Below, piece by piece: positions 17,124 through 64,000 of a stretch of 64,000 nt of DNA (position 1 is its first letter; each line of letters starts with the position of its first letter). Below the pieces are notes generated by a model, which made no database searches, was not told where the DNA came from, and saw nothing but the letters and a program-made list of their open reading frames with translations. The stretch comes from a virus. Location of the stretch: positions 5,947 to 69,946 of IMG/VR virus record IMGVR_UViG_3300048592_000443. One strand, written 5' to 3'. A program made the position numbers and the translations under genes.

Positions 17124-17335
17124 TGATCTGTTACACGCCTTATCTTACTGACTTGCCCGGCATTGCCACTGAGTACGCCGAGTGGGCCACGCTCAACCCC
17201 GAGCAGGCGCGGGCCGCGCTCTGGCACTGTTACAATTCGGAGCTTCGCGGCGTGGCCTGGCGCTACTACTACCCGCCTCAGCCGTCGGATGTGGCGCACC
17301 GCATTAGGAGAGCGCGCGATGGCCGGCAAGCGTAA
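17120..17335 (+). CDS. Hypothetical protein
   Basis: ATGA coupling. Confidence 0.5.
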   Translation: MMICYTPYLTDLPGIATEYAEWATLNPEQARAALWHCYNSELRGVAWRYYYPPQPSDVAHRIRRARDGRQA

Positions 17336-17501
17336 GCCGTCGCGTGCGACCGCTCGCACGGATAGAACGCCTGCGCCGCCTGTGGACTGGAAGGGCAGGC
17401 CGCCGATGATTTGCACCCTCGGCAGTGACTTGGAAGAGAGCCGGCGCCTGCAAGAGCGGCTAGAGCAACTGAGACAGCGCACTAGACAGGGGATGGTATG
17501 A
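17319..17501 (+). CDS. Hypothetical protein
   Basis: AGGAG RBS; contains a near-operator at 17344-17359. Confidence 0.45.
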   Translation: MAGKRKPSRATARTDRTPAPPVDWKGRPPMICTLGSDLEESRRLQERLEQLRQRTRQGMV

Positions 17502-17692
17502 TGACCGTAACGGATCAGGCGCCGCAGCGGTTACAGGTCACAATCGAAGAAGCTGCCCGTATGCTGTCTTACGATGTGTCAACGGTTCGGCGCAAGATTG
17601 CCAGGGGCGAGATTAAAGCTACGGGACACGGGCGCGGGCGCCGTGTGCCTGTTGCCAGCTTGCAAGAGTATATCGAGCGCGAACAGGAGTAG
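17498..17692 (+). CDS. xis: Excisionase (HTH_17/MerR-like)
   Basis: VTIEEAARMLS...TVRRKIARGEI....G...RVPV..L.EYI; directly upstream of an integrase start. Confidence 0.8.
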   Translation: MMTVTDQAPQRLQVTIEEAARMLSYDVSTVRRKIARGEIKATGHGRGRRVPVASLQEYIEREQE

Positions 17693-17696
17693 TGCC

Positions 17697-17733
17697 ATGG
17701 CTCGCCGTCGTACCAAGGGTGAAGGGTCAATAC
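17697..17733 (+). pseudogene. Tyrosine integrase N-terminal stub (12 codons)
   Basis: AGGAG RBS + MARRRTKGEGSI, the typical arm-binding N-terminus, then abrupt junction to ISL3 sequence. Confidence 0.7.
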
Positions 17734-18030
17734 CAGGCGGCGCGTCATCAGGTGGTCGCTGTCCAGCTCGGGCGGCTGCTCGAAGAAGGTGTCGCCACAC
17801 TCCAGGCACTTGAAGCGGCGACGGAGGAGGAGGATACCCACCCGCTTCCCGTGCATCGGGGTGTCGATGAACAGTTGCGGGCGCGTCTCGTGGCGGTAGA
17901 GGCGGGGCTGGACGTGACCGCAGCGAGGGCACGCCGAAGGGAGCGGGGTGTACTCCGCCGTGTAGCGGGTCGCTCCCTCAGCGTGCTCCTCGCCGCTAAT
18001 CTGCCAGTTGGGGAAGCCGAGAGGGTTCAC
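17730..18030 (-). pseudogene. ISL3-family transposase N-terminal fragment
   Basis: CPRCG...D.P..GKRV....RRRFKCLECG.TF.E...MTRRL zf-ISL3 domain; no DDE domain follows. Confidence 0.85.
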
Positions 18031-18033
18031 GGG

Positions 18034-18474
18034 CTACGCCTCGTGACGGGCACGGGCATCACGAAGCAAGGCGCGAATGAGCTTGTCGCCGCCATTGGCC
18101 TTAACCCAGGCTTTCAGGTCGGCATCCATTCGCAGCTCGTATCTGCTGTCAAGCTCTGGTTCGGCGTCGAGGAGCTTCGGCAGGCGACCGGCGCGGAACT
18201 CGGCGCGCTGGTGGTAGTAGCCAAGCGAGAAGTCGCCCTGCTGCGACATGATGAGCGACCCTTCAAAGGCGTCGGCAGGCAGCTCGGCCATAATCGGCAG
18301 CAGCAGCTCGCGGGCCTCCTCGCCGCCGTTCTTGGTGGCCTGCATCAGCAATGGGGTCAGGTGGGACGGGACGATGCTCGCCTTCTCGTACATCCGCTCG
18401 ACGTTGGGGACAACGCCCAAGCGGTCGAGAGCGGCCAGCAGCCGCCCCAGGTGGTATCCGGTGCGAGTGCTCAT
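18034..18474 (-). CDS. Cas11c/Cas8c-C-terminus-like protein fused to an RHH-like domain
   Basis: GYHLGRLLAALD...AS..P...QQGDFSLGYYHQR matches the Cas8c C-terminal signature; then YELRMDADLKAWVKANGGDKLIRALLR. Confidence 0.7.
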   Translation of the reverse strand: MSTRTGYHLGRLLAALDRLGVVPNVERMYEKASIVPSHLTPLLMQATKNGGEEARELLLPIMAELPADAFEGSLIMSQQGDFSLGYYHQRAEFRAGRLPKLLDAEPELDSRYELRMDADLKAWVKANGGDKLIRALLRDARARHEA

Positions 18475-18477
18475 TGG

Positions 18478-18753
18478 TTAGCTCCTGCACTCGCAAGCGC
18501 CGCCCCAGTGGCCGGCGCACCCACCGTCGTGCTGCTCGCGCTTGGCCGGAGCGGCAGCGACGACCCGCAGGCCGCGATAGCCCAGCCACTCAGCAGGCGT
18601 GTTCAGCGTGTCGCCGCCCATCGCCACTTTGACCGCCTCGGCGCTGATCACCCAGGTCTTGGTGGTGCCGTCGAACTTGCCGCCGAGCTGCTTGGCCGTG
18701 CTGACGCCCTTGCCAAACACCTTGGGGTTCACGCTGACGGTGATGGTAGCCAT
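18478..18753 (-). CDS. Small hypothetical protein (DUF5710-like K.LG.KFD...K.W motif)
   Basis: AAAGG RBS, first gene after a strong promoter. Confidence 0.7.
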   Translation of the reverse strand: MATITVSVNPKVFGKGVSTAKQLGGKFDGTTKTWVISAEAVKVAMGGDTLNTPAEWLGYRGLRVVAAAPAKREQHDGGCAGHWGGACECRS

Positions 18754-18760
18754 TGCCTTG

Positions 18761-18843
18761 CCTTTCGTCCGTACACGCTTCGTCTCTGTACGTACATATT
18801 AGCACCGTGTACGTACAAAGTCAAGGGGTGTACGGACGAAAGG
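18761..18843 (-). promoter_or_regulatory. Sigma70-type promoter with palindromic operators
   Basis: TTGACT-17-TAATAT (18824-18796); two TGTACGTACA palindromes; flanking 16-bp IR CCTTTCGTCCGTACAC/GTGTACGGACGAAAGG. Confidence 0.75.
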
Positions 18844-18942
18844 AGGATCAGTTTGAAAGGTACGATTCCACGAACTACGCCGACTCAACTACCGAACGTT
18901 CGTGCTGCCTCTCCACGAGGTACGCCGATTAGCCCTATTTGT

Positions 18943-18972
18943 AACCCACGACCTTCTGATTGATAGTCAGAA
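18943..18972 (-). other. attP-like core resembling a tRNA anticodon arm and variable loop
   Basis: Minus strand TTCTGA-CTATCAA-TCAGAAGGTCGTGGGTT; 6-bp IR with 7-nt spacer, located where the integrase 3' end would lie. Confidence 0.5.
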
Positions 18973-19016
18973 TTACGGCATAACACTGCCGCTATATGAA
19001 AGGGTGCGTAGAGGGT

Positions 19017-19532
19017 TTAGCCAATTCTCGTCACACTGACATGGTTATACAGGCTATCGTTTAGCAGTGCGAGCGCCGCGCCCGTGTTCTGAAATGCCCG
19101 CACGTCGAGCGTGTCGCCCGTGCTGCACGCGATCACGTCGGCCCCGCTGAGGCTTACGGCGAGCGCCGTCGCCGCCGGGTAGCCGTCGCGACGGGCAAGC
19201 ATACCGACCGAGACCCCGTTCTTGAACACCTCGATCTGCGCGTCCTCGGCGGGGTCCCACGCCGTCGTGCTGGCCCACGTCACGGTGGCGGTGACGAGGT
19301 AGTAGCCGTCGACGGGGCAGGTGAAGACCCAGCCCGCGCCGGTCGTGACCAGGGAGAGCGGGTCGTAATCCACATCCTCAAAGTTAACAACGGTGAATGA
19401 GTTGTTGGGGATGCTCTGCCCGGCGTTGCTGGTGTAGCGGGCGCCCACAAAGCGCGACAACTCGACTGACGCCATTTGATCGCGCCACTTTTCGAGCGCG
19501 GCCAGTCGCCGATACAGATCAGGGTCACTCAC
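19017..19532 (-). CDS. Tail tip/receptor-binding protein with C1q-like domain
   Basis: V.F..VDYD...FTCPVDGYY.V C1q/TNF-like pattern; last tail gene. Confidence 0.65.
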   Translation of the reverse strand: MSDPDLYRRLAALEKWRDQMASVELSRFVGARYTSNAGQSIPNNSFTVVNFEDVDYDPLSLVTTGAGWVFTCPVDGYYLVTATVTWASTTAWDPAEDAQIEVFKNGVSVGMLARRDGYPAATALAVSLSGADVIACSTGDTLDVRAFQNTGAALALLNDSLYNHVSVTRIG

Positions 19533-31007: not shown

Positions 31008-31411
31008 TAGCGGGGCGGCACGAACTCCGGCCAGTGCCAGGTGCCGCCGGCCGGCGCCTCTGTTGCGTCGTGCCAGGCGACCGCAGTAAAGGGCGGCTCG
31101 TTCACTGGAAAGACAGTAAGCGCCTGCATAGTCACCTCGCCTACGCCCTCAGGCACGGTGAATGCCGGATCGGTGATGATTGCCGGAACATGCTTGTCGC
31201 CATACACGAAATGCACAACCCGACCCACGCTCGGAACCTGCTGCGGCTGACCCTGGTAGGGGTTTGCGATATTCTTCTCACTCACCTTGCGTTTCTCCTG
31301 TCGCTTTTTCCACTCATCAGCGGCATACAGCGCGTATGCCGGATCGTCACCCCGTCTGATGTGCCGATAGTAAATATCCTGCCAGGTGGAAGGGCGGCGC
31401 GACACTGTCAC
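31007..31411 (-). CDS. Conserved small phage protein (true start may be internal)
   Basis: PSVGRVVHF...AIIT...L.VF...WHWP pattern. Confidence 0.65.
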   Translation of the reverse strand: MTVSRRPSTWQDIYYRHIRRGDDPAYALYAADEWKKRQEKRKVSEKNIANPYQGQPQQVPSVGRVVHFVYGDKHVPAIITDPAFTVPEGVGEVTMQALTVFPVNEPPFTAVAWHDATEAPAGGTWHWPEFVPPR

Positions 31412-34263
31412 CCCTGCTTGCGCGGGCGCCCGCGCTGCTTGTGCTGCTGCGCCTTGTTCTCGACGGCCCGATCAAGCGCCGCCTTGTCGAATGCCGCCGC
31501 GATCTCTGCGGCATCTGCGACTGGCGCATCGTCGTCACTCGCCGCCGCCGCGCGCTCTGCGGCAAACTGCGCCGGGGCGGGTGCTGTGACGCGCTGTGCG
31601 GGCTCAGGAGCGGCGATAGGCGCCGGGGGCGGCTGATGCGACACGGGCGCGGGCGCGGGGCTCTCAGCGGCGTCTAGCGCCCTCCGAAAGCCGATGCCCT
31701 CCATAAAAGCAACATCTTCATTCCAGACGGCGATTAGGCGCTGATCGCCACCGTAGGTGTAGCGCACGGGTCGCCCGTCAACGCGCTTCGTGCGGCTTTG
31801 CACGTTGGTCGTACCGGCCTTGTTGCCGGTATACTCCATAAGGGTCTGGCCCGCTTGCAGGTCCATACTCATGATCTCCCCTTCCGTGAGTGACTGTCGT
31901 ATTCGCATCAAGGCCGCGCCAGACGGCCCGCAACCGCATGCCATCGGTTTTACTCCCTCGTATCTGCCCCGGATCAGCGGTGCAAGTTTCTCGCCATTGG
32001 CCCATGCCGCATTCCGTTGCGTGCCTGAATACTTCCGATAGCCGAGCAAGGCGCCGGGTTGCCTGACACCGCAGAAACCACGGGCGGCGAGCTTCGCGAA
32101 GAAATCCCAATCTTCCCAACCCGGCAACGCCTCGTCAAAGCCGTCAACCGCTCGCGCCCATTCGGTAGGGACAAGAGCGGTAACGGCGTGCTGACCCTTC
32201 ACGAACCAGGCCTGCGGGTCATACTCTGGCGCTTGGTCCTCCCACGGGTCGCGCCCCTGTTCAAAGTTGACCCAATCCGAGTACACATACTTGCCGGTCA
32301 AGGCTTGCTTTTTGAACATCAGGCGCAGCGCATCAGGATCGGCTAGCCAATCATCGGCATCAAGGAACAGGACCAGCGGCGCAGTTGCGGCATGCAACCC
32401 CAGGTTGCGCGCGGCGGCAGGCCCGCGCCCGCCCTCGGTCTGCAACACCTTGCAGAACGGGTATGCGGGCAGATCAAGATCCTCGCCGCTGTCATTCACG
32501 ACAATACATTCCCATTGGCGATAGGTCTGCATCAGCAGGCTATCAATTGCGCCGGGCAGGTAGCGGGCGTGGTTTGGCCCAACGGGAATGATGACGCTGA
32601 TCAGCGGTCGCGCGTAACTCAGGACCGTGGGCGGCTTCTCGGAGGGTGCTGCGAACGGGAATTGACGGTCGCGCATCCAGGGGTGATAGCCCGAATAGTC
32701 GAAATAGCGCCGTGTCTTACTGGCGCCCCCCGCGTGATTGCGATACCAGATCCATGGCTCGTCTGCCACCTTGCGCGCGGCGTAGCCGACTGAGAGCCCG
32801 CGCGTATAGAACTCGGCATCTTCACCCGGCGCAAACACCTGACGATAGCCGCCGGCCCGTTGCCAGAGTGAGCGCCGGAACATCGCCGCCGTTGGCACAC
32901 AGGTGCGCGGGGGATTGCCCGGCGTGCTCTGATGCTCCCAATCAAAGGCGGGCGGGAATGCCGAGGGCGTGACCCTGCCATCGTCGGCAAGCAAGCCAAG
33001 GCCAGTATACGCAATGCCGAGGGCGCGATCTGCTTTCAAGGCGGCGCGGCAGACCCGAATATAGTCAGGTGCGAGTTGATCATCTGCGTCGAGACAGATC
33101 ACATACTCGCACTCGGTTGCCGCAACGCCGTTGTTTCGCGCGGCGGCTACACCTTGATTGGACTGAGGAATATAGCGCACGCCAGCGGCGGCATGCACCG
33201 CTAGTGCATCAAGCGCAACATCATCGGTATGGTCTGTGCTGCCATCATTGACAATGACAATTTCGTCAGGCGCATCAGACTGCACTAGCAGACTGTCAAC
33301 GGCGCCTTTCAAGTATTGACCATAGTTATAACTGGTCACAACCACACATACCCGGTGCCGCTCGCGCGCCTTCTCCTCTGCGATGCGATGGTACAGATCA
33401 ACATAGGCGCGCATGGCCGCGTCCCATGTGCATGATACGCCTGTGATTGCGGCATTCTGGCTGTACTGCTGCCAGTTATCCATCAGCGCATAATAGCCCT
33501 GGTATAGCCCCTCGGTGTCGCCGGGCTCGACAAGCCAACCCGTAATACCGTGTTCTACCAGATCGGACGTGCCACACCAGCGATAGCCGAGGATTGGCAC
33601 GCCGGCCGCCATCGCCTCTAGCGTGCCAATGCCAAATGTCTCAGGCGTCGTTGCGAGGTATACCGAGGCGTGTCTGATGAACGTCCGCATTTTGTCGTGA
33701 GGCTGCACGCCAATCACGAACAGGGTTTCAGGTCGCGTGCCGGCGTCACCAAAGGTCGTGATGACTGGCACGCCGCGCCGCGCAAGCGCACAGGCCGGGC
33801 GCGGGTCGCATACGTCACTGCTACGGCTCTTATTCCACAGCGCATAGCCGCGCCGCTCTTCTCTCGACAGGGGTGCCCACTCGGCCGGGTCAATGCCATG
33901 GCCGATGACGAGCGGATCGAGGCGCATATCGCGCTTGAACGTCTCTGCGACCCAGGGCGAGGGAACGGTGATCACGCGAGCGCCGCGCGCCGTCGCCGCA
34001 ATACGCTTGTTCGCCTCGTAATGCCAGGCCTGATACTTCTCGTGCGGCAAATCCTCAACATACAGCCCGTGGCAGTGCAGCACGTCAACGTTGCGCCCGT
34101 TGCTCTCGATATGACAGGCGGTTACATCTGCCGTATCGGGCGATCCGACCAACTCAACCCCATAGCGCGGCAACAGGTCATACTGCGCCTTGACAATGCG
34201 ACCAATGCCGTTGTTGTCGTCAACGGCAGTCGGGTCAGGAGTGAGGTGTAGGCGGAGGGTCAT
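31408..34263 (-). CDS. Multidomain glycosyltransferase (GT4 + GT2 + GT2 + C-terminal domain)
   Basis: ETFGIGTLEAMAAGVP (GT-B); two V.I..Y/V...VND.S...ARN.G...LDADD...ED GT-A domains. Confidence 0.9.
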   Translation of the reverse strand: MTLRLHLTPDPTAVDDNNGIGRIVKAQYDLLPRYGVELVGSPDTADVTACHIESNGRNVDVLHCHGLYVEDLPHEKYQAWHYEANKRIAATARGARVITVPSPWVAETFKRDMRLDPLVIGHGIDPAEWAPLSREERRGYALWNKSRSSDVCDPRPACALARRGVPVITTFGDAGTRPETLFVIGVQPHDKMRTFIRHASVYLATTPETFGIGTLEAMAAGVPILGYRWCGTSDLVEHGITGWLVEPGDTEGLYQGYYALMDNWQQYSQNAAITGVSCTWDAAMRAYVDLYHRIAEEKARERHRVCVVVTSYNYGQYLKGAVDSLLVQSDAPDEIVIVNDGSTDHTDDVALDALAVHAAAGVRYIPQSNQGVAAARNNGVAATECEYVICLDADDQLAPDYIRVCRAALKADRALGIAYTGLGLLADDGRVTPSAFPPAFDWEHQSTPGNPPRTCVPTAAMFRRSLWQRAGGYRQVFAPGEDAEFYTRGLSVGYAARKVADEPWIWYRNHAGGASKTRRYFDYSGYHPWMRDRQFPFAAPSEKPPTVLSYARPLISVIIPVGPNHARYLPGAIDSLLMQTYRQWECIVVNDSGEDLDLPAYPFCKVLQTEGGRGPAAARNLGLHAATAPLVLFLDADDWLADPDALRLMFKKQALTGKYVYSDWVNFEQGRDPWEDQAPEYDPQAWFVKGQHAVTALVPTEWARAVDGFDEALPGWEDWDFFAKLAARGFCGVRQPGALLGYRKYSGTQRNAAWANGEKLAPLIRGRYEGVKPMACGCGPSGAALMRIRQSLTEGEIMSMDLQAGQTLMEYTGNKAGTTNVQSRTKRVDGRPVRYTYGGDQRLIAVWNEDVAFMEGIGFRRALDAAESPAPAPVSHQPPPAPIAAPEPAQRVTAPAPAQFAAERAAAASDDDAPVADAAEIAAAFDKAALDRAVENKAQQHKQRGRPRKQG

Positions 34264-34538
34264 TGCGGTAACTCCGGCAATCCTTCACCTTTTTTCAGGC
34301 TTTCAATTGCAACTTGCCACGCCGCACGCCATATCATTTGATTGGAGTGCGGCATCTTGGCCGCATACGCTACAATGCAAGCGTCATAGGCTTTTACTTC
34401 CTCAAATGGCACGCCAAGGCATACCGCCTGATGCCATGTTTGCTCTTGATCTGCAAGCATTTCATACTGCGCACGTACATCAGCCGGTAAAACTCCCATA
34501 GACAGAGCAAGGCTTTGTAGTAATTTTCCGTGCATCAC
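34260..34538 (-). CDS. Hypothetical protein (lower GC)
   Basis: Overlaps both neighbours by 4 nt. Confidence 0.55.
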   Translation of the reverse strand: MMHGKLLQSLALSMGVLPADVRAQYEMLADQEQTWHQAVCLGVPFEEVKAYDACIVAYAAKMPHSNQMIWRAAWQVAIESLKKGEGLPELPQ

Positions 34539-35089
34539 TTCACCCTGAATGAAATCAGCGTGTCAACAAACGACACTTGCTCATATCTGCCGACAAGCAA
34601 TTCCTTGACGGCCTTATTGACGCCGTGCCAAACCTTGACTTTTTTCTCGTAATCATGAACGGCCATAATGCCGCCCGGCTTGATATGCCGTAACCAGATA
34701 GTAATATCGCCTTTGGCCTCGTGGTACTGATGGCCGCCGTCAACAAACACGAGGTCAACCGGGCCATACTCCCAACGCTTACCGACTTCCTTGCTATCAC
34801 CGTGGATTTGCGTATGGCGCGGGTCGCCCCAGAAGCCGGCCGATCTGAATACCGCTTCCTCGCCTTCCAGACAGCCAAAGGGGCTGCTTTCCTTCTGAAT
34901 GTCGATTGTGAAGAGCCTGAGATCGGGGCGCGCTTCCATAAAAGCCAGGCCTGATGTGCCGTTGCCGGCGCCAATGTTTACGATTGACGCATGCTCAGGC
35001 AGGGAGCGGGCCATCTCCTGTAGTGCGTCAACCTCGGCATGGGTCAGGTAGTTTGTCCAATCAACAACGCTATGTGCGGTATGGCCCAT
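34535..35089 (-). CDS. Class I SAM methyltransferase (Methyltransf_24-like, probable sugar O-MTase)
   Basis: NIGAGNGTS, DLVFVDGGH.Y, PGG.MAVHDY. Confidence 0.85.
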   Translation of the reverse strand: MGHTAHSVVDWTNYLTHAEVDALQEMARSLPEHASIVNIGAGNGTSGLAFMEARPDLRLFTIDIQKESSPFGCLEGEEAVFRSAGFWGDPRHTQIHGDSKEVGKRWEYGPVDLVFVDGGHQYHEAKGDITIWLRHIKPGGIMAVHDYEKKVKVWHGVNKAVKELLVGRYEQVSFVDTLISFRVK

Positions 35090-36280
35090 CTATGCCGCCT
35101 TTCGCATAACAAGCGAATTGACACCCTCAGTGATCACTTCCGCCATATAGGTAATGTCGCTTGCGGTCAAATCCTGGTGCGAAGCGACGTAAAAGCCGCT
35201 CCGGTTAACCCAGTCGGCAACCGGATAGTGCGACGGGTCGCACCAATCAGCATAGGCGGGCTGATTGGTAAGCGGCAACATCTCGCGCGTTTCAATGCCG
35301 CGCTCTTCTAGATACGCGCACAGCGCGTCTTTAGGCGCGTGCCTGATGACCAGGGGCAGCATCATAAAGGCATGGCCGGTGTGCGGTCGCACCTGAGGCA
35401 ACTGCAACAGGTCAGAGACAGGATTGAGCGCGTGGCACAGGGCCATGGCATTGGCCCGCCGCTGTGCGATCATCTCCTGCCAGGTTTCGAGTTGTGCGAG
35501 GCCTAAGGCCGCTTCTAGTTCGGTAATCCGAAACGAATGTCCGATGCGCTCAAAGCGAAAGCGCTTGCTGATGACTTCGCGCAACTCGGCGCCGCTCTTG
35601 CCGGCGTCGTCGTCAATCGCGATATAGATCCCATCGCGCCCGTGGTTGACGAGCGAACGCATCACGGCGGCGATCTCAGGGTCATTGGTTGTCGCGATGC
35701 CGCCCACGCCCGTTGTCAGCAGGTGCGCAACGTAGGTCGAAAAACAGCCTACGTCACCCCACGAGCCGGCCGCGCGCCCGTGGTGACTGACAAACATGCA
35801 TTCGCAACTATCCTCGATAACCGCAAGGCTGTGCTGTGCAGCGAGAGCCTGCACAGCCTTCATATCACACGGCATGCCGAACAGGTGTACCGGCAGAATG
35901 GCGCGCGTGCGCGGCGTGATGGACGCCTCAATCTGGCGTGCGTCAATGCCGTAGTAGCCTGGTTCCACGTCAACCAGCACAGGCGTCAAACGGCAGTGCA
36001 GCACAACATTAACGGTCGCAACAAAGGTGAGCGACGGCACGATCACTTCGTCGCCGTCTGCCCACCCGTGCAACTCTTTGAGGGTTTGCAGAGCTACTTG
36101 CAGACTTGAGGTGCCGCTATTCGATAGCACGGCATAGCGGCTATCGTGCAAGGCGGCGAACTGCTGTTCAAAAGCGCGCGACATGGGGCCATAGGAGATG
36201 CGCCCGCTGTCGAGTACCTGATTGACCAGCTCGCGCATGCGCTCAGTGGTGCGAAAGGTGCCAACGCCGATTTGCTTCAT
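35090..36280 (-). CDS. DegT/DnrJ-family PLP/PMP enzyme, ColD/E1-like 3-dehydratase type
   Basis: NSGTS.L, PVHLFG, IEDSCE; FSTYVAHLLTTG has His where aminotransferases have the catalytic Lys. Confidence 0.85.
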   Translation of the reverse strand: MKQIGVGTFRTTERMRELVNQVLDSGRISYGPMSRAFEQQFAALHDSRYAVLSNSGTSSLQVALQTLKELHGWADGDEVIVPSLTFVATVNVVLHCRLTPVLVDVEPGYYGIDARQIEASITPRTRAILPVHLFGMPCDMKAVQALAAQHSLAVIEDSCECMFVSHHGRAAGSWGDVGCFSTYVAHLLTTGVGGIATTNDPEIAAVMRSLVNHGRDGIYIAIDDDAGKSGAELREVISKRFRFERIGHSFRITELEAALGLAQLETWQEMIAQRRANAMALCHALNPVSDLLQLPQVRPHTGHAFMMLPLVIRHAPKDALCAYLEERGIETREMLPLTNQPAYADWCDPSHYPVADWVNRSGFYVASHQDLTASDITYMAEVITEGVNSLVMRKAA

Positions 36281-36546
36281 TGAAATCTGCCGCCTTCATG
36301 ACGTGTGCTTACGGGGGGATATACGGTTATGCGCTCACTAAGCGCCGCGATAATCAAATCAGCGCACCGCTCTGCCGAACTCCCTACTTCCGGTCGGATT
36401 GCATCAACGATGATGCGGCGCCATTCGCGGGTCAAATGCTCGTGCTGCGCCTCAATTGCCGCTTTCGCGGCGTCTCCGTACACATCGCCCATCTTATCAA
36501 CACGAGGAAGCCATAAAGTAAATCTTGTATTCATTCCACACCCCAC
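36277..36546 (-). CDS. Hypothetical protein
   Basis: Operonic overlap. Confidence 0.5.
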   Translation of the reverse strand: MGCGMNTRFTLWLPRVDKMGDVYGDAAKAAIEAQHEHLTREWRRIIVDAIRPEVGSSAERCADLIIAALSERITVYPPVSTRHEGGRFQ

Positions 36547-37241
36547 GGCTTAAGATAGCCGAGTGCGGTCAACTCGGCAACGTCTGACGGGTCAAGTTCG
36601 TCAAGTAGCAGTTTGGCACTATCGCCACCTCGAAATGCCAGGGTATGACGCACGGGCCATACCCGCGAACCGAGGACGATCATTTCGTCGCGCATCGCCC
36701 GTAGGCGCGGCGTGCCGTTTAACTCGACTTCCCATGGCGTCTCGCCCGGAATGAGCACACGGCGCAGGTTGCGCGGGCTCCAGATAGCGGTCATCAGCGA
36801 CATATGATACTGGCTCTCGGGGTCAGACCAGATCAGATCCAGATGACCGCACTTGCCGTAGAGGCTTGCGCCCTGCGCGTGTAGCCTGTCGCCGGTCAGG
36901 TCCATACGGCAGACGTAGCCGAACTGGCGGCAGTAGTCTGCGAGCATACGCACCGCCTCAACCTGCACCGGGCGCGTAATCCAGTAATCTTCGAGCATCA
37001 AGGCGAAGGGCTCGTCAGGGATGACGCTCAGGAGTTTCAGCAGCGCGTCTGACCAGCGGTTGACCGGATAGTCAGAGAAGGTGCCAAGGCTCAGGAAGTC
37101 GGCAAACGGGGGTAACTCGAAATCAGGCGACGTGAAGCCGCAGACTGTGACCGTCTGCCCCGGCCAGTATTTACCGAACAGCCAGAGAAACGGCCGCACG
37201 GCGGGAAGATATTTATCCGAGGTCATCACATACACGCGCAT
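36531..37241 (-). CDS. Putative GT-A-like glycosyltransferase
   Basis: S..Y...F.KYWP, WS..L, LMLEDYW, PWE.E motifs; cluster context. Confidence 0.55.
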   Translation of the reverse strand: MRVYVMTSDKYLPAVRPFLWLFGKYWPGQTVTVCGFTSPDFELPPFADFLSLGTFSDYPVNRWSDALLKLLSVIPDEPFALMLEDYWITRPVQVEAVRMLADYCRQFGYVCRMDLTGDRLHAQGASLYGKCGHLDLIWSDPESQYHMSLMTAIWSPRNLRRVLIPGETPWEVELNGTPRLRAMRDEMIVLGSRVWPVRHTLAFRGGDSAKLLLDELDPSDVAELTALGYLKPWGVE

Positions 37242-38188
37242 TAGCGAACACCTCTGTACCAATCGACGGTGCGTTGCAAGCCGTCATACAGGCTGAACAC
37301 GTGCGACCAGCCAAGCGCCTGCAAGCGCGATGCGTCACTGTAGCGCGCCGGGTCGCCTGGGTCGTAATCGCTCGCAAACTCGACAGTCTTATCAGTGCCG
37401 CACGCCGCCTGAATGAGTGTCACCAGCTCGCGAATGCTCACACAAGTTGCGCCGCTCGTGCCGATGTTATAGGCCTTGCCGTGCTCGCCGCGCTCCAGGG
37501 CTGTCAGCATGCCCTGCGCAACGTCGGCGACATAGATAAACTCGCGCCGCTCGTGACCTGAACCGTTGACGCGGATCGTCGCATCGTTCAGCGCCTTGCG
37601 AATGAGCGCCGGGATAACGTGCGCCCGCTCGTCAAAGTAGTCGCGCGGGCCAAAGACGTTTGACGGCCGCACAATGACGGCGTGCGCGAGATCTGCCCAC
37701 TCGGTAACGCGCTCACCAATCCGCTTTGACCAGGCATAGCCATTATTCGCGGCGTGCGGCTCGTCTCTGCGCCCGAACACCTCGTAGGCCGGCGCGTTGT
37801 GATCAGGCGAGTACACGCACACGGACGAGGCTTGCAGGACGTGCGGCACGCTGCGCACGGCGGCGGCAATCATCGGCACGGTCTGCAATCTGACGTTGCG
37901 CTCGAACATCAGTGCATGATTGTGCTGATTGTAGGCCACGCCCGCGACATAGGCAGCGAGATTGAACAGGGCGAAAGCGCCGTCAAGCGCCTTGGTCATC
38001 GCCCGCTCATCACCCGCGTCAACCCGGATCAGGCGAGAACCCGGCACGAACGTGCTGCCCCGGCTCATATCGTCAATGACCAGCACCTCGGCGCCCCGGT
38101 CAATCAGCAACTCGGCAAGTGCCGATCCGACCATGCCGGCGCCGCCCGTTACCACAACCCGCTGACCTGCGTAGAAATCAGGTGTCAT
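37241..38188 (-). CDS. NAD(P)-dependent epimerase/reductase, GDP-fucose synthase/ColC-like
   Basis: TGGAGMVG, SSVCVY, GYAWSK, N.FGP.D.F...HVIPALIRK, GSG...REF.YV.D. Confidence 0.88.
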   Translation of the reverse strand: MTPDFYAGQRVVVTGGAGMVGSALAELLIDRGAEVLVIDDMSRGSTFVPGSRLIRVDAGDERAMTKALDGAFALFNLAAYVAGVAYNQHNHALMFERNVRLQTVPMIAAAVRSVPHVLQASSVCVYSPDHNAPAYEVFGRRDEPHAANNGYAWSKRIGERVTEWADLAHAVIVRPSNVFGPRDYFDERAHVIPALIRKALNDATIRVNGSGHERREFIYVADVAQGMLTALERGEHGKAYNIGTSGATCVSIRELVTLIQAACGTDKTVEFASDYDPGDPARYSDASRLQALGWSHVFSLYDGLQRTVDWYRGVR

Positions 38189-45033: not shown

Positions 45034-47067
45034 CTACCTGCGTCGTCTGGCCTCAACGGCGGCCCGGCGCTCCGCTGTTGCCCGCTCGCGCGCCATGCGG
45101 TTGCGCGCATCCTGCAACGCCGCCTGATAGCCGCGCACGTCGCCGCGCTCTAATGCCGTCAGCGCACGCCTGCCCTGGTCAGTCGCCTCGCCACCGCTTG
45201 TGAAACCGAGCCGAGCAAGCGCATCGTTGCCGCCGCCTGTCTCGGCCGCAGCGCGCAGGGAGCTGTAATCATCAGGCGAGATGCCAACCTTGCGCGCCGT
45301 ATCGCGCGCCGTCGCCCGCCGATCCTGGTCGCGCCGTATGGCCCGCTCATCTGCGGCCGGCTTTGCTTGTTTCGGCTTCTCAGGTGAGTTGCGCGGGCCG
45401 CCAGACGAGCCGCCACTAGCAGGGCGTGCGTTGCCGGCGGGGCTGATGTTGCGCAGGGCGTTCGTATTGTTCTTTGACGGCTTCTCGTCTTTGCCCTTGC
45501 CGCCCCCGCCGCCCTTCTTTGGCTTGGCTTCCTTCGGATCTTTCCCTTGCTCTTTGGCGTTGCGCGCTGCCTCACGAGCCGCCCGGCGCTCCTCAATCTC
45601 GCGCCGCCGCTGTGCGCGCTGCTCACCCCTTCCGAGTGCGTCACGCGCCTTGCTCACATCGCCCGTTCGTGCCGCCGCGATATACGACCGGCCGGCGCCG
45701 CTGATGCGATAGGAGCCGTCAGGGTTTTTCTCGACAAGCCCTTTGGCGAGCAAGGCTTCAGCGTTCTGCGGTGCAAGGGTGATATTTTCGTCAGGGCTGG
45801 CAAATTCGAGCAAGGCATCAGACAGACTGGCGCCAAGGCCGGCGCCATCGCCTACAGCCTTTTCATTCTCGCGCCGCTTGGCGTCGCGCTCGGCTTCACG
45901 CTGCGCCTGCTTTGCAAGCCGCTCTTGCTCTTTCTGTGCGTCTGATTTCTTCGGCTTACTGCCTTTGCTGCCACCCTTCTTTGGCTTCTTTTTCTTATCG
46001 GGGAAGCCGGACAGGTCAAGTTTGAACGGCTTTGACCCACTGGCGCTACCTGCGCTGGTGAACTTGCCATCGGCGCCACGTTTCAGATTGCCGCGAATAG
46101 TCTCGCCCGCGCGAGCGCTATACCCGCGCCCACCGCTCGGCGCAGGGCGGCCGCTCGCGCCCTCATCGCTTTCGGCTTTAAGCGCGGCGGCAAGGCGCCG
46201 CTGTGCTGACTTGCTCTTGCGCGCAACCCGCTCAGGCAGGCGACGAAACGCGGCCGTATCGCCCGTCTCATCTGCCCAGCGCTCTGCGAACGGCTGACCT
46301 GTGCTAAAAGCCCATCTTTGCTGAGCGCGAGAGGCGAACGGCTTGGTTGTGATAGCCGGCGCTTTTTCTGTCGAAATTTCTCCAGCCATATGCGGCGCAA
46401 GCGGCTGCTTGCCGAGTAATGGCAGATCGATGCGCTCACCAGCCCATACCAGACTGATAGCCTCAAAGCGCAGCGGCGTGCGCTTGCGCTCCAGTCGCGG
46501 CATAGGCGTGCTGGCAGGCAGGTAGCACAACGTAATGTGCGGCGTGAAGCCGTAGCGATCTTCCAGGGGGATAGCAAGTCCCGAAGCGCGCATATACACC
46601 GCTTGCCTGAGCCAAGGCAACTGCGGGCTATTCAGGAGCATCACGAGCGGGTATTGCTCGTCATCGCCGGCAAAGGCGCCGTAGCCGTTGACTGCCACCT
46701 CAACCGGCTCGGTCATACTTGCCAGCACGGCAAGCGACGAAAGCAGGGCCGCCTTGCGGTCCTCAATCGCCGCCGCGTCCTGAGCCAGATAGATCAGGGT
46801 GCAGTGGTCTGCCTCTTTGGCGAGGCGCCCCGGTATGCCTTCGGTAATCTCGGCTGTCTGCTCAGGAGTGAGCATCAGCGCGAGCATTGCACCGGGATTA
46901 GCGTCAGGGTCAATCTGTACTGCCTTATACACCTGCGCCGCTCGCGCCTTCTCCGCCCGTCGCTGTGCTGACTTGCTGCGACGCCTGCCCATAGCACTAA
47001 GGGCGGGATTGCTGAACAATCCGCCCGGCCCGTGTGCATAGTTCGTATTTGGCGTCGGATCAGTCAT
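45034..47067 (-). CDS. Head-module protein with 2H phosphoesterase (LigT/Acb1-like) domain and basic low-complexity tail
   Basis: HCTL and PHITL motifs about 90 aa apart; N-terminus copies a capsid peptide; RGADGKF motif. Confidence 0.8.
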   Translation of the reverse strand: MTDPTPNTNYAHGPGGLFSNPALSAMGRRRSKSAQRRAEKARAAQVYKAVQIDPDANPGAMLALMLTPEQTAEITEGIPGRLAKEADHCTLIYLAQDAAAIEDRKAALLSSLAVLASMTEPVEVAVNGYGAFAGDDEQYPLVMLLNSPQLPWLRQAVYMRASGLAIPLEDRYGFTPHITLCYLPASTPMPRLERKRTPLRFEAISLVWAGERIDLPLLGKQPLAPHMAGEISTEKAPAITTKPFASRAQQRWAFSTGQPFAERWADETGDTAAFRRLPERVARKSKSAQRRLAAALKAESDEGASGRPAPSGGRGYSARAGETIRGNLKRGADGKFTSAGSASGSKPFKLDLSGFPDKKKKPKKGGSKGSKPKKSDAQKEQERLAKQAQREAERDAKRRENEKAVGDGAGLGASLSDALLEFASPDENITLAPQNAEALLAKGLVEKNPDGSYRISGAGRSYIAAARTGDVSKARDALGRGEQRAQRRREIEERRAAREAARNAKEQGKDPKEAKPKKGGGGGKGKDEKPSKNNTNALRNISPAGNARPASGGSSGGPRNSPEKPKQAKPAADERAIRRDQDRRATARDTARKVGISPDDYSSLRAAAETGGGNDALARLGFTSGGEATDQGRRALTALERGDVRGYQAALQDARNRMARERATAERRAAVEARRRR

Positions 47068-47127
47068 ACAGCAAAAGCCGCCTATCTCAGTCGAGACAGG
47101 CGGCAAAGCGCGCGGGTGATTGATTTG

Positions 47128-63584: not shown

Positions 63585-63642
63585 GGAATATTCGCCTTTG
63601 CTATCCGCAATCACGTAATATCACGTATTTTCCGTGGATTGC

Positions 63643-63670
63643 TTGACATTTCCAAACTTTGTGCTACACT
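63643..63670 (+). promoter_or_regulatory. Sigma70-type promoter
   Basis: TTGACA-16-TACACT with extended TG; degenerate operator just downstream. Confidence 0.6.
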
Positions 63671-63711
63671 TCGCATGTGTTGACACGTCGCACAAGTCAG
63701 GAGCAAGGGCA

Positions 63712-64000
63712 ATGACCGCAGAGACGACAATCACGATCCGCAATCGCTTCACGGGCAACACCATGTACGAGGTTAGCGCGCCAGATTTGCGCGGCGCCGT
63801 GTTGAAACTTATTTCAATCGACGCCGACCTGAGCGACGCCAACCTGAGCGACGCCGACCTGAGCGGCGCCAACCTGAGGCGCGCCGACCTGAGCGACGCC
63901 AACCTGAGCGACGCCGACCTGAGCGGCGCCAACCTGAGGGGCGCCGACCTGAGCGGCGCCAACCTGAGCGACGCCGACCTGAGCGGCGCCAACCTGAGGC
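63712..64000 (+). CDS. Pentapeptide-repeat protein (truncated by window end)
   Basis: I.NRFTG N-terminus then A(D/N)L(S/R)x repeats encoded by 15-bp tandem units. Confidence 0.9.

Follow-up and report, generated by a model that had tools for sequence, protein, structure and literature searches.

Type I-C, one of the commonest subtypes of CRISPR-Cas, serves as a tool for editing genomes by large deletions, and off-switches for it are being sought. For Cas11c, the small subunit of type I-C Cascade, translation begins at a start inside cas8c (McBride 2020, cited after Hu 2023). The anti-CRISPR (Acr) protein AcrIB4 is reported to share 38% identity with the 90 C-terminal residues of Cas8b, to inhibit type I-B systems upstream of DNA binding and to form a clade of its own (Katz et al. 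2023, 10.1101/2023.06.24.545427), and it has been argued to be effectively a Cas11 homologue that replaces Cas11 (10.1101/2025.06.06.658234). Katz et al. also report 358 orphan viral cas genes; the main text of their article, which does not contain the list of these genes, mentions neither Cas11 nor Cas8c nor I-C (10.1101/2023.06.24.545427). AcrIE10 of Klebsiella plasmids is described as a ribbon-helix-helix (RHH) protein of combined Acr and Acr-associated (Aca) type. As a dimer of dimers it occupies an inverted repeat in its own promoter, from which Cas7 releases it; according to the same source it is chiefly a regulator that senses Cas7, and its own Acr activity is weak (PMC13530269). For AcrIF25, a homologue is reported in which the RHH is replaced by a helix-turn-helix (HTH), and Aca14 is described as a stand-alone RHH protein (10.64898/2026.07.27.740549). 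Here we describe a cassette in a 64,000-nucleotide stretch of DNA, referred to as the window, from the 69,946-base IMG/VR virus record IMGVR_UViG_3300048592_000443. The second gene of this cassette (gene 2) encodes a Cas11c-like domain followed by a predicted RHH domain.

A preliminary description of the window, made from the letters alone, had offered two ideas about this gene: a decoy that poisons Cascade while regulating itself, or a Cas11 fold used as a sensor or oligomerisation domain. By analogy, both have precedents in the published accounts of AcrIB4 and AcrIE10. The explanation we favour, with a probability of about 0.5, is that gene 2 would be a bifunctional, self-repressing type I-C anti-CRISPR that mimics Cas11c, a counterpart of the Cas11b-like AcrIB4 equipped with an RHH autorepressor as in AcrIE10 and AcrIF25. 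The literature searched describes neither a Cas11c homologue from a phage nor a fusion of Cas11 with an RHH.

A Cas11c-like domain on a phage genome

Gene 2 lies at 18034–18474 on the minus strand (146 aa plus stop), and the 146-aa open reading frame (ORF) with a Cas11c signature that had been announced earlier was found there. Its product shows the motifs Y7.LGRL and ..QGDFSLGYYHQR90 and then a C-terminal tail. The Pfam profile PF09709 (Cas_Csd1) matched with an E value of 1.4e-11 (44.2 bits against a cut-off of 27), residues 2–93 corresponding to positions 450–558 of the 559 in the profile. TIGR01863 matched over its C-terminal stretch (E 3.6e-9, 35.7 bits), below its full-length equivalog cut-off of 218.65 bits. 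Four Cas8c models of PADLOC matched as well (E about 1e-9), and gene 2 matched no other PADLOC model. Judged by these profiles, gene 2 is not a Cas8c; the C-terminal domain is present by itself.

The predicted fold points in the same direction. An AlphaFold2 model of gene 2, built from 37 relatives, reached a mean predicted local distance difference test score (pLDDT) of 87.5. Foldseek against the PDB gave, among the matches listed (14 rows, ranks 1–15), exclusively Cas11c or Cas8c chains of type I-C Cascade, with a probability of 1.00, identities of 23–28% and E values of 0.012–0.084. VIA-align, a search independent of Foldseek, put the chains 8g9s_K, 8g9u_H and 8dej_I from N. lactamica and D. 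vulgaris type I-C structures at the top (Z 11.0, 10.9 and 10.5; root-mean-square deviation (rmsd) 2.5–2.8 Å over 93–101 aa). These were followed by Cas11 proteins of other subtypes, namely a I-A Cas11 (Z 6.1) and CasB (Z 5.5). A single-sequence phmmer search of gene 2 against the PDB yielded weak Cas11c matches only (E 0.064–0.31); because of this, and because the Foldseek E values are only around 1e-2, the case for Cas11c rests on the profiles together with the folds. The identity with the Cas8c C-terminus, or Cas11c, that had been proposed from the letters is thus borne out by PF09709, TIGR01863, PADLOC and the fold, and the suggested structural comparison with Cas11c came out in its favour. 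On profile and model evidence, residues 1–97 (18184–18474, minus strand) are a genuine homologue of Cas11c or the Cas8c C-terminus. A chance ORF with a spurious profile match is practically out of the question, given 39 clusters of relatives at 47–71% identity, a Pfam score above the gathering cut-off, the high pLDDT of the model (87.5) and a G+C content at third codon positions (GC3) of 0.82.

Gene 2 is an orphan: a Cas11c-type gene on a phage, outside any type I-C cas operon seen in the record. The gene content of the record, whose completeness is estimated at about 79%, is that of a tailed, siphovirus-like phage. The absence of cas3, cas7 and an array had been stated before and held up, with zero profile matches to Cas7c and Cas3 across the whole 69.9-kb record (about 79% complete) and no CRISPR-like array in the 64-kb window.

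We compared 54 N-terminal domains of the gene 2 family with 148 distinct C-terminal domains of host Cas8c proteins from fetched loci. In the tree, one split parts all 54 family domains from all 148 host domains (support 0.991, branch 1.12). The two groups have a common core, consisting of Y7, G10, R11, L12, A14, L16, E17, A32, P36, L74, F82, L84, G85, Y86, Y87, H88 and R90, while Q20, A23, D26, R27, V39, F40, L43, P71 and Q79 are invariant in the hosts and unconserved in the family. The median net charge is −3 in the family (−6 to 0, n = 54) against +3 in the hosts (−2 to +8, n = 148), with 7.6 against 11.4 K and R residues per 100 aa; this is a comparison at sequence level only, and relatedness among the sequences makes its Mann-Whitney p (7e-26) look stronger than it is.

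A positively charged channel or groove on Cas11c is reported to serve the non-target strand (O'Brien 2020, PMC7684278; Hu 2023). A scaffold kept without this charge would be the expected look of a poisoning subunit, and equally of a domain freed from its old job. The kept fold and core motifs could also be taken to mean that the phage supplies a working Cas11c which complements or boosts the type I-C Cascade of its host. Such a pro-CRISPR role is highly improbable, however, since the positive charge tied to non-target-strand binding is lost, the domain is fused to what is predicted to be a dimerising repressor domain, and the family forms a separate clade on a long branch, with no array found in the window and no Cas7c or Cas3 in the record.

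Among the loci fetched for comparison, the metagenome locus L054 (505–3413) encodes its Cas11c-equivalent as a separate 142-aa ORF between ORFs of 529 and 297 aa, and L058, L067, L078 and L079 do likewise. The 529-aa ORF of L054 is presumably a Cas8c without its C-terminal domain, and loci of this type look like naturally split cas8c/cas11c pairs that take the place of an internal start.

The C-terminal tail and the candidate operators

The preliminary description had seen an RHH-like tail of 35 aa in gene 2. The RHH assignment is upheld by the predicted fold and dimer; the length has to be corrected to about 43 aa (residues ~104–146; 18037–18165, minus strand). The domain consists of the strand R111-Y-E-L-R115-M, then helix A and helix B. 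Nowhere is the family better conserved than here (EP.LD.RYE.R.D.DLK.W.K.NGGDKLIRALLR), and R111, E113 and R115 are invariant in 37 sequences. For a model of the tail by itself (AlphaFold2, pLDDT 86), VIA-align ranked the RHH of PutA first (Z 5.0, rmsd 1.1 Å over 38 aa), and its list from the top is made up of RHH proteins: CopA_SO, TacA, AmrZ, SvtR, NikR, Arc, Omega, ParD and FitA. In structure the tail also matched chain 8ji9_D of AcrIE10 (Z 3.7).

When two copies of residues 97–146 were modelled together, the interface score ipSAE was 0.68, while the best of 3 controls scored 0.00. Between runs, at least 96% of the contacts were the same, with a partner pLDDT of 83 or more. With this the pair passes the mark of the method; of the proteins solved as pairs 20 of 30 did so as well, of those solved as single chains 1 of 23. 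The pass is itself a prediction and may partly reflect likeness to solved RHH dimers. In the model, residues 112–115 of one chain touch residues 112–115 of the other as an antiparallel ribbon and helix B lies on helix B', which is the RHH topology. Because residues 112 and 114 touch the helices, 111, 113 and 115 point outwards, and in RHH proteins the outward strand positions are the seat of the DNA-reading residues. The tail is thus predicted to be a dimerising RHH.

RHH proteins are common antitoxins, and many of the top structural matches of the tail are antitoxins. It is conceivable that the Cas11c fold was exapted for a purpose unrelated to CRISPR and that gene 2 is an ordinary RHH repressor of a phage 'moron' cassette, such as a toxin-antitoxin-like pair in reverse order or a superinfection function. 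The acidic character of the family and the loss of several host-invariant residues would suit such an origin, as would the fact that neither a known acr gene, as far as Pfam, PHROGs and PADLOC can tell, nor a host type I-C system has been shown. We nevertheless find it doubtful. As a matter of general knowledge, the RHH of a type II antitoxin is normally N-terminal and its partner toxin is conserved, whereas the partners of gene 2 are swapped, unrelated genes (see below). In addition, PADLOC matches nothing in gene 2 except Cas8c, and the parallel with AcrIB4, AcrIE10 and AcrIF25 is close.

The cassette has a promoter on the minus strand with a −35 element TTGACT (18819–18824) and a −10 element TAATAT (18796–18801), separated by a 17-nt spacer and with TG before the −10 hexamer. 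TTGACT-17-TAATAT is the only sigma-70-like site in 17300–19200, a region whose shuffles yield 0.3 ± 0.6 such sites. It had been noted before that TGTACGTACA palindromes cover this promoter, and we indeed find two exact sites and two with 2 mismatches. The first candidate operator, O0 (18829–18838; CGTCCGTACA on the minus strand, 2 mismatches to TGTACGTACA), is placed just upstream of the −35 element. O1 (18808–18817) is an exact palindrome between −35 and −10, and O2 (18787–18796), also exact, covers the last −10 base and the likely transcription start. O3 (18766–18775; TGTACGGACG on the minus strand, 2 mismatches) falls in the 5' untranslated region (UTR). The four sites start at 18766, 18787, 18808 and 18829, that is, at a spacing of exactly 21 bp, and the promoter is enclosed by a 36-nt inverted repeat (18761–18843; arms 18761–18796 and 18808–18843, 86% complementary). 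Matches to TGTACGTACA with at most one mismatch occur twice in the 64-kb window, both of them exact and both in this promoter; sites with up to two mismatches in the rest of the window number only 7, all singletons. The arrangement of the operators, unlike their count, exceeds chance, because four sites stand at exactly 21-bp spacing within an 86% complementary inverted repeat.

This architecture is conserved in all three loci (3/3) that show the promoter together with an intact gene 2. The other two are an IMG/VR contig (L002) and a metagenome contig (L003), in each of which gene 2 is 59% identical to ours. Both carry three sites, spaced 22 and 21 bp apart in L002 and 22 and 19 bp apart in L003, and both keep the −35 element (TTGACT in L002, TTGACA in L003), the site positions and the downstream ribosome-binding region ACGRAACGAAAGG. 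O1 is exact and in the same place in both contigs and O2 has 1-mismatch versions in both, while O3 recurs with identical sequence in L002 and O0 has a counterpart in L003. A scan of IMG/VR for the operator pattern matched more than 119 stretches, most of which are presumably chance matches. A second site lies nearby in 27 of them, and among these only L238, which is the same contig as L002, belongs to the gene 2 family.

A similar promoter was observed in unrelated low-GC phages, where TTGAC(A/T)TTGTACGTACA ... ATGTACAAAATGTACGTA precedes a gene for a 58-aa protein (L165:6461–6709 and L180:2978–3231, with about 17 further IMG/VR loci: L163, L197, L201, L202, L206, L222, L230, L234, L244, L246, L247, L249, L252, L254, L255, L256 and L262). 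These promoters share a TTGACxTTGTACGTACA operator core with the gene 2 cassette. One type of the 58-aa protein matches Pfam RHH_1 (E 2e-7), and the predicted strand of these proteins is R-x-E-x-R (RIEIRM, RLEVRL; compare RYELRM in gene 2). To judge from these sequences, the shared operator core may pair with the shared ribbon residues.

The gene 2 family and its neighbourhoods

A word-indexed search gave the 39 clusters of relatives at E ≤ 0.001 among 216 candidates, all 82–162 aa long and nearly all full-length; 37 of them form the alignment used here, the fragments P0037 and P0038 being left out. An exhaustive search with representatives raised the number at E ≤ 0.001 to 58 clusters, including two-domain members down to 27–45% identity, Cas11c-like proteins without the tail (93–116 aa) and eight full-length Cas8c proteins. 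The tail was also found alone (P0058, 55 aa; P0089, 60 aa), on other N-terminal domains (P0075, P0076 and P0088) and at the N-terminus (P0084). In P0044, a Cas11c-like protein, the RHH is replaced by HTH_17 (E 8.5e-12).

Among 185,579 species genomes, the best 80 of 355 relatives were all Cas8c C-termini and none was a family member. The 50,697 records of cultured phages gave zero matches, and of 72,556 plasmids searched 7 records matched, all bona fide cas8c. The metagenome scan gave 440 matches, and the best 80 of these included 3 family members (L003, L004 and L005). Two subgroup alignments made for the divergent subfamilies found no relative in IMG/VR. L130, aligned over residues 7–145, proved on inspection to be without the RHH tail and was rejected as a family member.

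The survey of gene neighbourhoods that the preliminary description had suggested covered five loci, and the gene upstream of gene 2 was different in each (91, 73, 95, at least 33 (contig end) and 186 aa). In pairwise comparison of these genes (10 pairs) the best E value was 0.39, and Pfam, PHROGs and PADLOC returned nothing for them. The wider neighbourhoods differ too: an amidase gene adjoins the cassette in L002, and an FtsK-like ATPase and a ParB-like gene flank it in L003. The resemblance to acr-aca operons that had been pointed out earlier can therefore be filled in: the locus has a conserved, small regulator of DNA-binding type near its 3' end, inverted repeats that lie as candidate operators over the −35 and −10 elements, and exchangeable upstream genes, unrelated in 5 of 5 loci.

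A conserved gene 2 next to a variable gene 1 would also be expected if gene 2 were only a sensor and regulator. As an Aca, it could use its Cas11c-derived domain to bind, for example, free Cas7c and relieve repression according to the abundance of CRISPR-Cas, or just to oligomerise, and gene 1 would be the inhibitor. We consider such a division of labour, the strongest of the rival readings, possible if rather unlikely; it overlaps with the self-repressing inhibitor that we favour, and the two are not mutually exclusive. It gains from the fact that conservation is highest in the tail and the operators, and from the tails found alone (P0058, P0089) or on other domains (P0075, P0076, P0084, P0088), which mark the tail as a portable regulatory module. 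AcrIE10, reported to be mainly Cas7-sensing with weak Acr activity of its own, is a precedent (PMC13530269). On the other hand, the core Y7, G10-R11-L12, F82, L84-G-Y-Y-H88 and R90 has been kept despite divergence to about 30% identity, which suggests a retained specific interaction and not a generic helical scaffold. Moreover, AcrIB4 is reported to show that a Cas11-like protein alone can inhibit (10.1101/2023.06.24.545427).

In the window, the promoter described above is followed by three genes: gene 1 (18478–18753, minus strand, 91 aa), gene 2 and gene 3 (17569–18030, minus strand, a 153-aa ORF). The TAA stop of gene 1 and the ATG of gene 2 are 3 nt apart, with AGGAG within the 3' end of gene 1, and another 3 nt separate the stop of gene 2 from the GTG of gene 3. 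The earlier claim that gene 2 is co-transcribed with the 91-aa gene agrees with the single promoter and the 3-nt gap and has to be extended, as a third gene follows too. GC3 of the three genes is 0.81–0.88. A 423-aa ORF on the plus strand (17692–18963; GC1 0.79, GC3 0.63) was dismissed as a shadow of genes 1–3.

Gene 1, which has no assigned function, occupies the variable 'acr slot' (GC3 0.88) and is an Acr candidate by its position only. Neither Pfam, PHROGs, NCBIfam and PADLOC nor the protein atlas gave it a usable name, and its relatives are unnamed; its homologues form only 2 clusters, at 57–60% identity. One of its motifs, AKQLGGKFDGTTKTW, weakly resembles DUF5710 (Pfam E 0.006, which misses the cut-off), and at its C-terminus there is an invariant H75/C79/C87/C89 cluster (H-x3-C-x7-C-x-C), which may bind metal. 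By eye, K..G..FD...W-type motifs can also be seen in the upstream genes of L005 (4429–4989) and L002 (5770–5991) and in P0088, where the motif is fused to an RHH tail of the gene 2 type; none of these motifs reached the Pfam threshold.

The first ~100 aa of gene 3 correspond to the N-terminus (zinc ribbon) of an ISL3 transposase, and its homologues span 62–65% of the query, with PF14690 and PF13542. GC3 is 0.88 in its first 100 codons and 0.67 in the last 53. The last ~53 codons show no homology, and the last ~40 overlap a convergent gene for a 64-aa HTH_17 (excisionase-like) protein (17498–17692, plus strand). They are probably read-through of a transposase remnant, and gene 3 is probably a relic of an insertion at an accessory locus. 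It is specific to the window and absent downstream of gene 2 in L002.

With its own promoter, the cassette sits at the junction of the late minus-strand block (end 19017) and the plus-strand block (end 17692), and the flanking genes are those for terminase, tail, Gam and helicase. The minus strand encodes the small and large terminase, a tape-measure-like minor tail protein, a Sipho_Gp37-like protein and a C1q/BclA-like fibre tip, and the plus strand Gam, a helicase, an exonuclease, HNH, a DNA methylase, MazG and DUF1064. No tRNA genes were found in the 64-kb window. The best cultured relatives of the large terminase are only 26–40% identical over about half of the protein and are scattered over many phyla, and host assignment by this route was dropped.

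Three other features of the genome were observed. A 15-nt periodic repeat of at least 9 copies (63621–64000) runs past the end of the window and has a pentapeptide-repeat-like product (A/D-N/D-L-S-x); proteins of this kind are capable of DNA mimicry. A sugar-modification block within the structural module (31408–38188, minus strand) is unusual cargo for a siphovirus-like genome and comprises a 951-aa GT1 + GT2 glycosyltransferase protein, a methyltransferase, a DegT/DnrJ aminotransferase (E 1e-89) and an NAD-dependent epimerase/dehydratase. A 690-aa protein (45034–47106, minus strand) contains a domain of the 2'-5' RNA ligase / 2H phosphoesterase superfamily (E 7.7e-9). This superfamily includes phage proteins that degrade cyclic-nucleotide immune signals, and the protein may be a second anti-defence candidate.

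Proposed mechanism and comparison with known systems

For the self-repressing Cas11c mimic that we favour, we infer DNA binding with repression, Cascade binding and inhibition of interference as follows. The RHH domain would dimerise, probably form higher oligomers, and bind the four TGTACGTACA-like operators, which lie two helical turns apart over the −35 and −10 elements and the 5' UTR; binding would shut off the operon after an early burst of expression. The acidic Cas11c-like domain would engage the type I-C Cascade of the host at Cas11c sites, be it the Cas7c backbone, the Cas8c C-terminal domain or a neighbouring Cas11c. Since it would supply no positive groove for the non-target strand, the complex would be unable to stabilise the R-loop. 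Gene 1, as the exchangeable upstream gene, would be a further anti-defence candidate.

A more speculative version, which we think unlikely, couples the two halves of the protein: on docking to Cas7c or Cascade, the Cas11c-derived domain would both poison the complex and break the operator-bound RHH oligomer, so that expression of the cassette becomes proportional to the type I-C Cascade present. More generally, the portable tail would point to a broader, modular kind of switch in uncultured phages, an 'immune-subunit mimic plus repressor', because it occurs alone, on other N-terminal domains and, in P0044, swapped for an HTH.

Several points weigh against gene 2 as a Cas11c-mimicking inhibitor. 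The acidic surface and the lost host-conserved residues, as deduced from the alignments, fit equally a domain that no longer touches Cascade. The compared sequences were chosen by similarity and are related, which makes the p-value and the clean split in the tree optimistic. The RHH call stands on predicted structures: Pfam found no family in the tail alone (51 and 59 aa) even at E 10, and a profile of 13 tails run against PDB sequences gave chance matches only (E ≥ 0.09), with no RHH protein among them. Taken absolutely, the Z of 5.0 for the tail is low, although a value of this order is to be expected of 46 residues. The number of TGTACGTACA matches is by itself not significant, as 18 of 100 shuffles reach at least 2. 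Only five loci were inspected, and L005 is an exception among them: it has no TGTACGTACA operators within 700 nt, and its gene 2 (L005:4851–5418) is broken into two reading frames, be it by a frameshift or by faulty assembly. Pfam, PHROGs and PADLOC recognised no known acr gene in the cassette, a dedicated Acr library not being among the collections searched. Finally, the terminase comparison points to no one host lineage, and a type I-C system in the host is an assumption.

If active, the gene 2 family would be the first Cas11c-derived inhibitor and would, together with AcrIB4, make the copying of small subunits a recurrent route to anti-CRISPRs. The built-in RHH and the unusually regular four-site operator would offer a compact system for asking whether mobile elements gauge the Cascade level of their host in the manner of AcrIE10. 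As conserved features, gene 2 and its operator could further anchor a guilt-by-association discovery of anti-defence genes in uncultured high-GC phages without known Aca markers.

Compared with host Cas11c, gene 2 has the same fold and the motifs Y.LGRL ... QG.F.LGYYHQR, and the phage domain starts about where Cas11c starts. In contrast to host Cas11c, the phage gene is neither nested in cas8c nor part of a cas operon. Counted to the GYYHQR motif plus 4, the phage domain is also shorter (median 89 aa, compared with 106 aa in hosts); it is acidic where the host domain is basic, and is without the host-invariant Q/A/D-R motif of helices 1–2. It continues into an RHH tail, whereas the host proteins end a median of 24 residues past the motif.

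AcrIB4, as described, is like gene 2 a small homologue, encoded by a mobile genetic element, of only the last ~90–100 residues of the Cascade large subunit (the Cas11 equivalent), an orphan outside cas operons and a member of a clade apart from bona fide Cas proteins. Its parent is the type I-B Cas8b, and it is described for Listeria only, whereas the parent of gene 2 is the I-C Cas8c/Cas11c and its carriers are uncultured high-GC phages. The activity of AcrIB4 has been measured and its published description includes no RHH; gene 2 has the added RHH and is known from sequence, the likeness being one of description.

AcrIE10, by its published account, shares with gene 2 an RHH that recognises an inverted repeat in its own promoter and a second domain that binds a Cascade subunit, both of which are predictions for gene 2. 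It is also encoded second in an operon of two genes, the first of which encodes another Acr, and gene 2 stands behind an Acr candidate. In AcrIE10 the RHH is N-terminal, the Acr domain is no Cas homologue and the target is type I-E*; gene 2 has its RHH at the C-terminus and, as its other domain, a homologue of Cas11c. AcrIF25 and Aca14, as reported, resemble gene 2 in that an RHH regulates acr operons through inverted repeats overlapping the −10 element, and the RHH-to-HTH swap of AcrIF25 is mirrored by P0044 with its HTH_17. Aca14, likened here by description, differs as a stand-alone RHH with AT-rich operators and no Cas-derived domain. In a form not found in the literature searched, gene 2 joins two known ideas, the mimic of a Cas subunit and the Acr-Aca fusion with an RHH.

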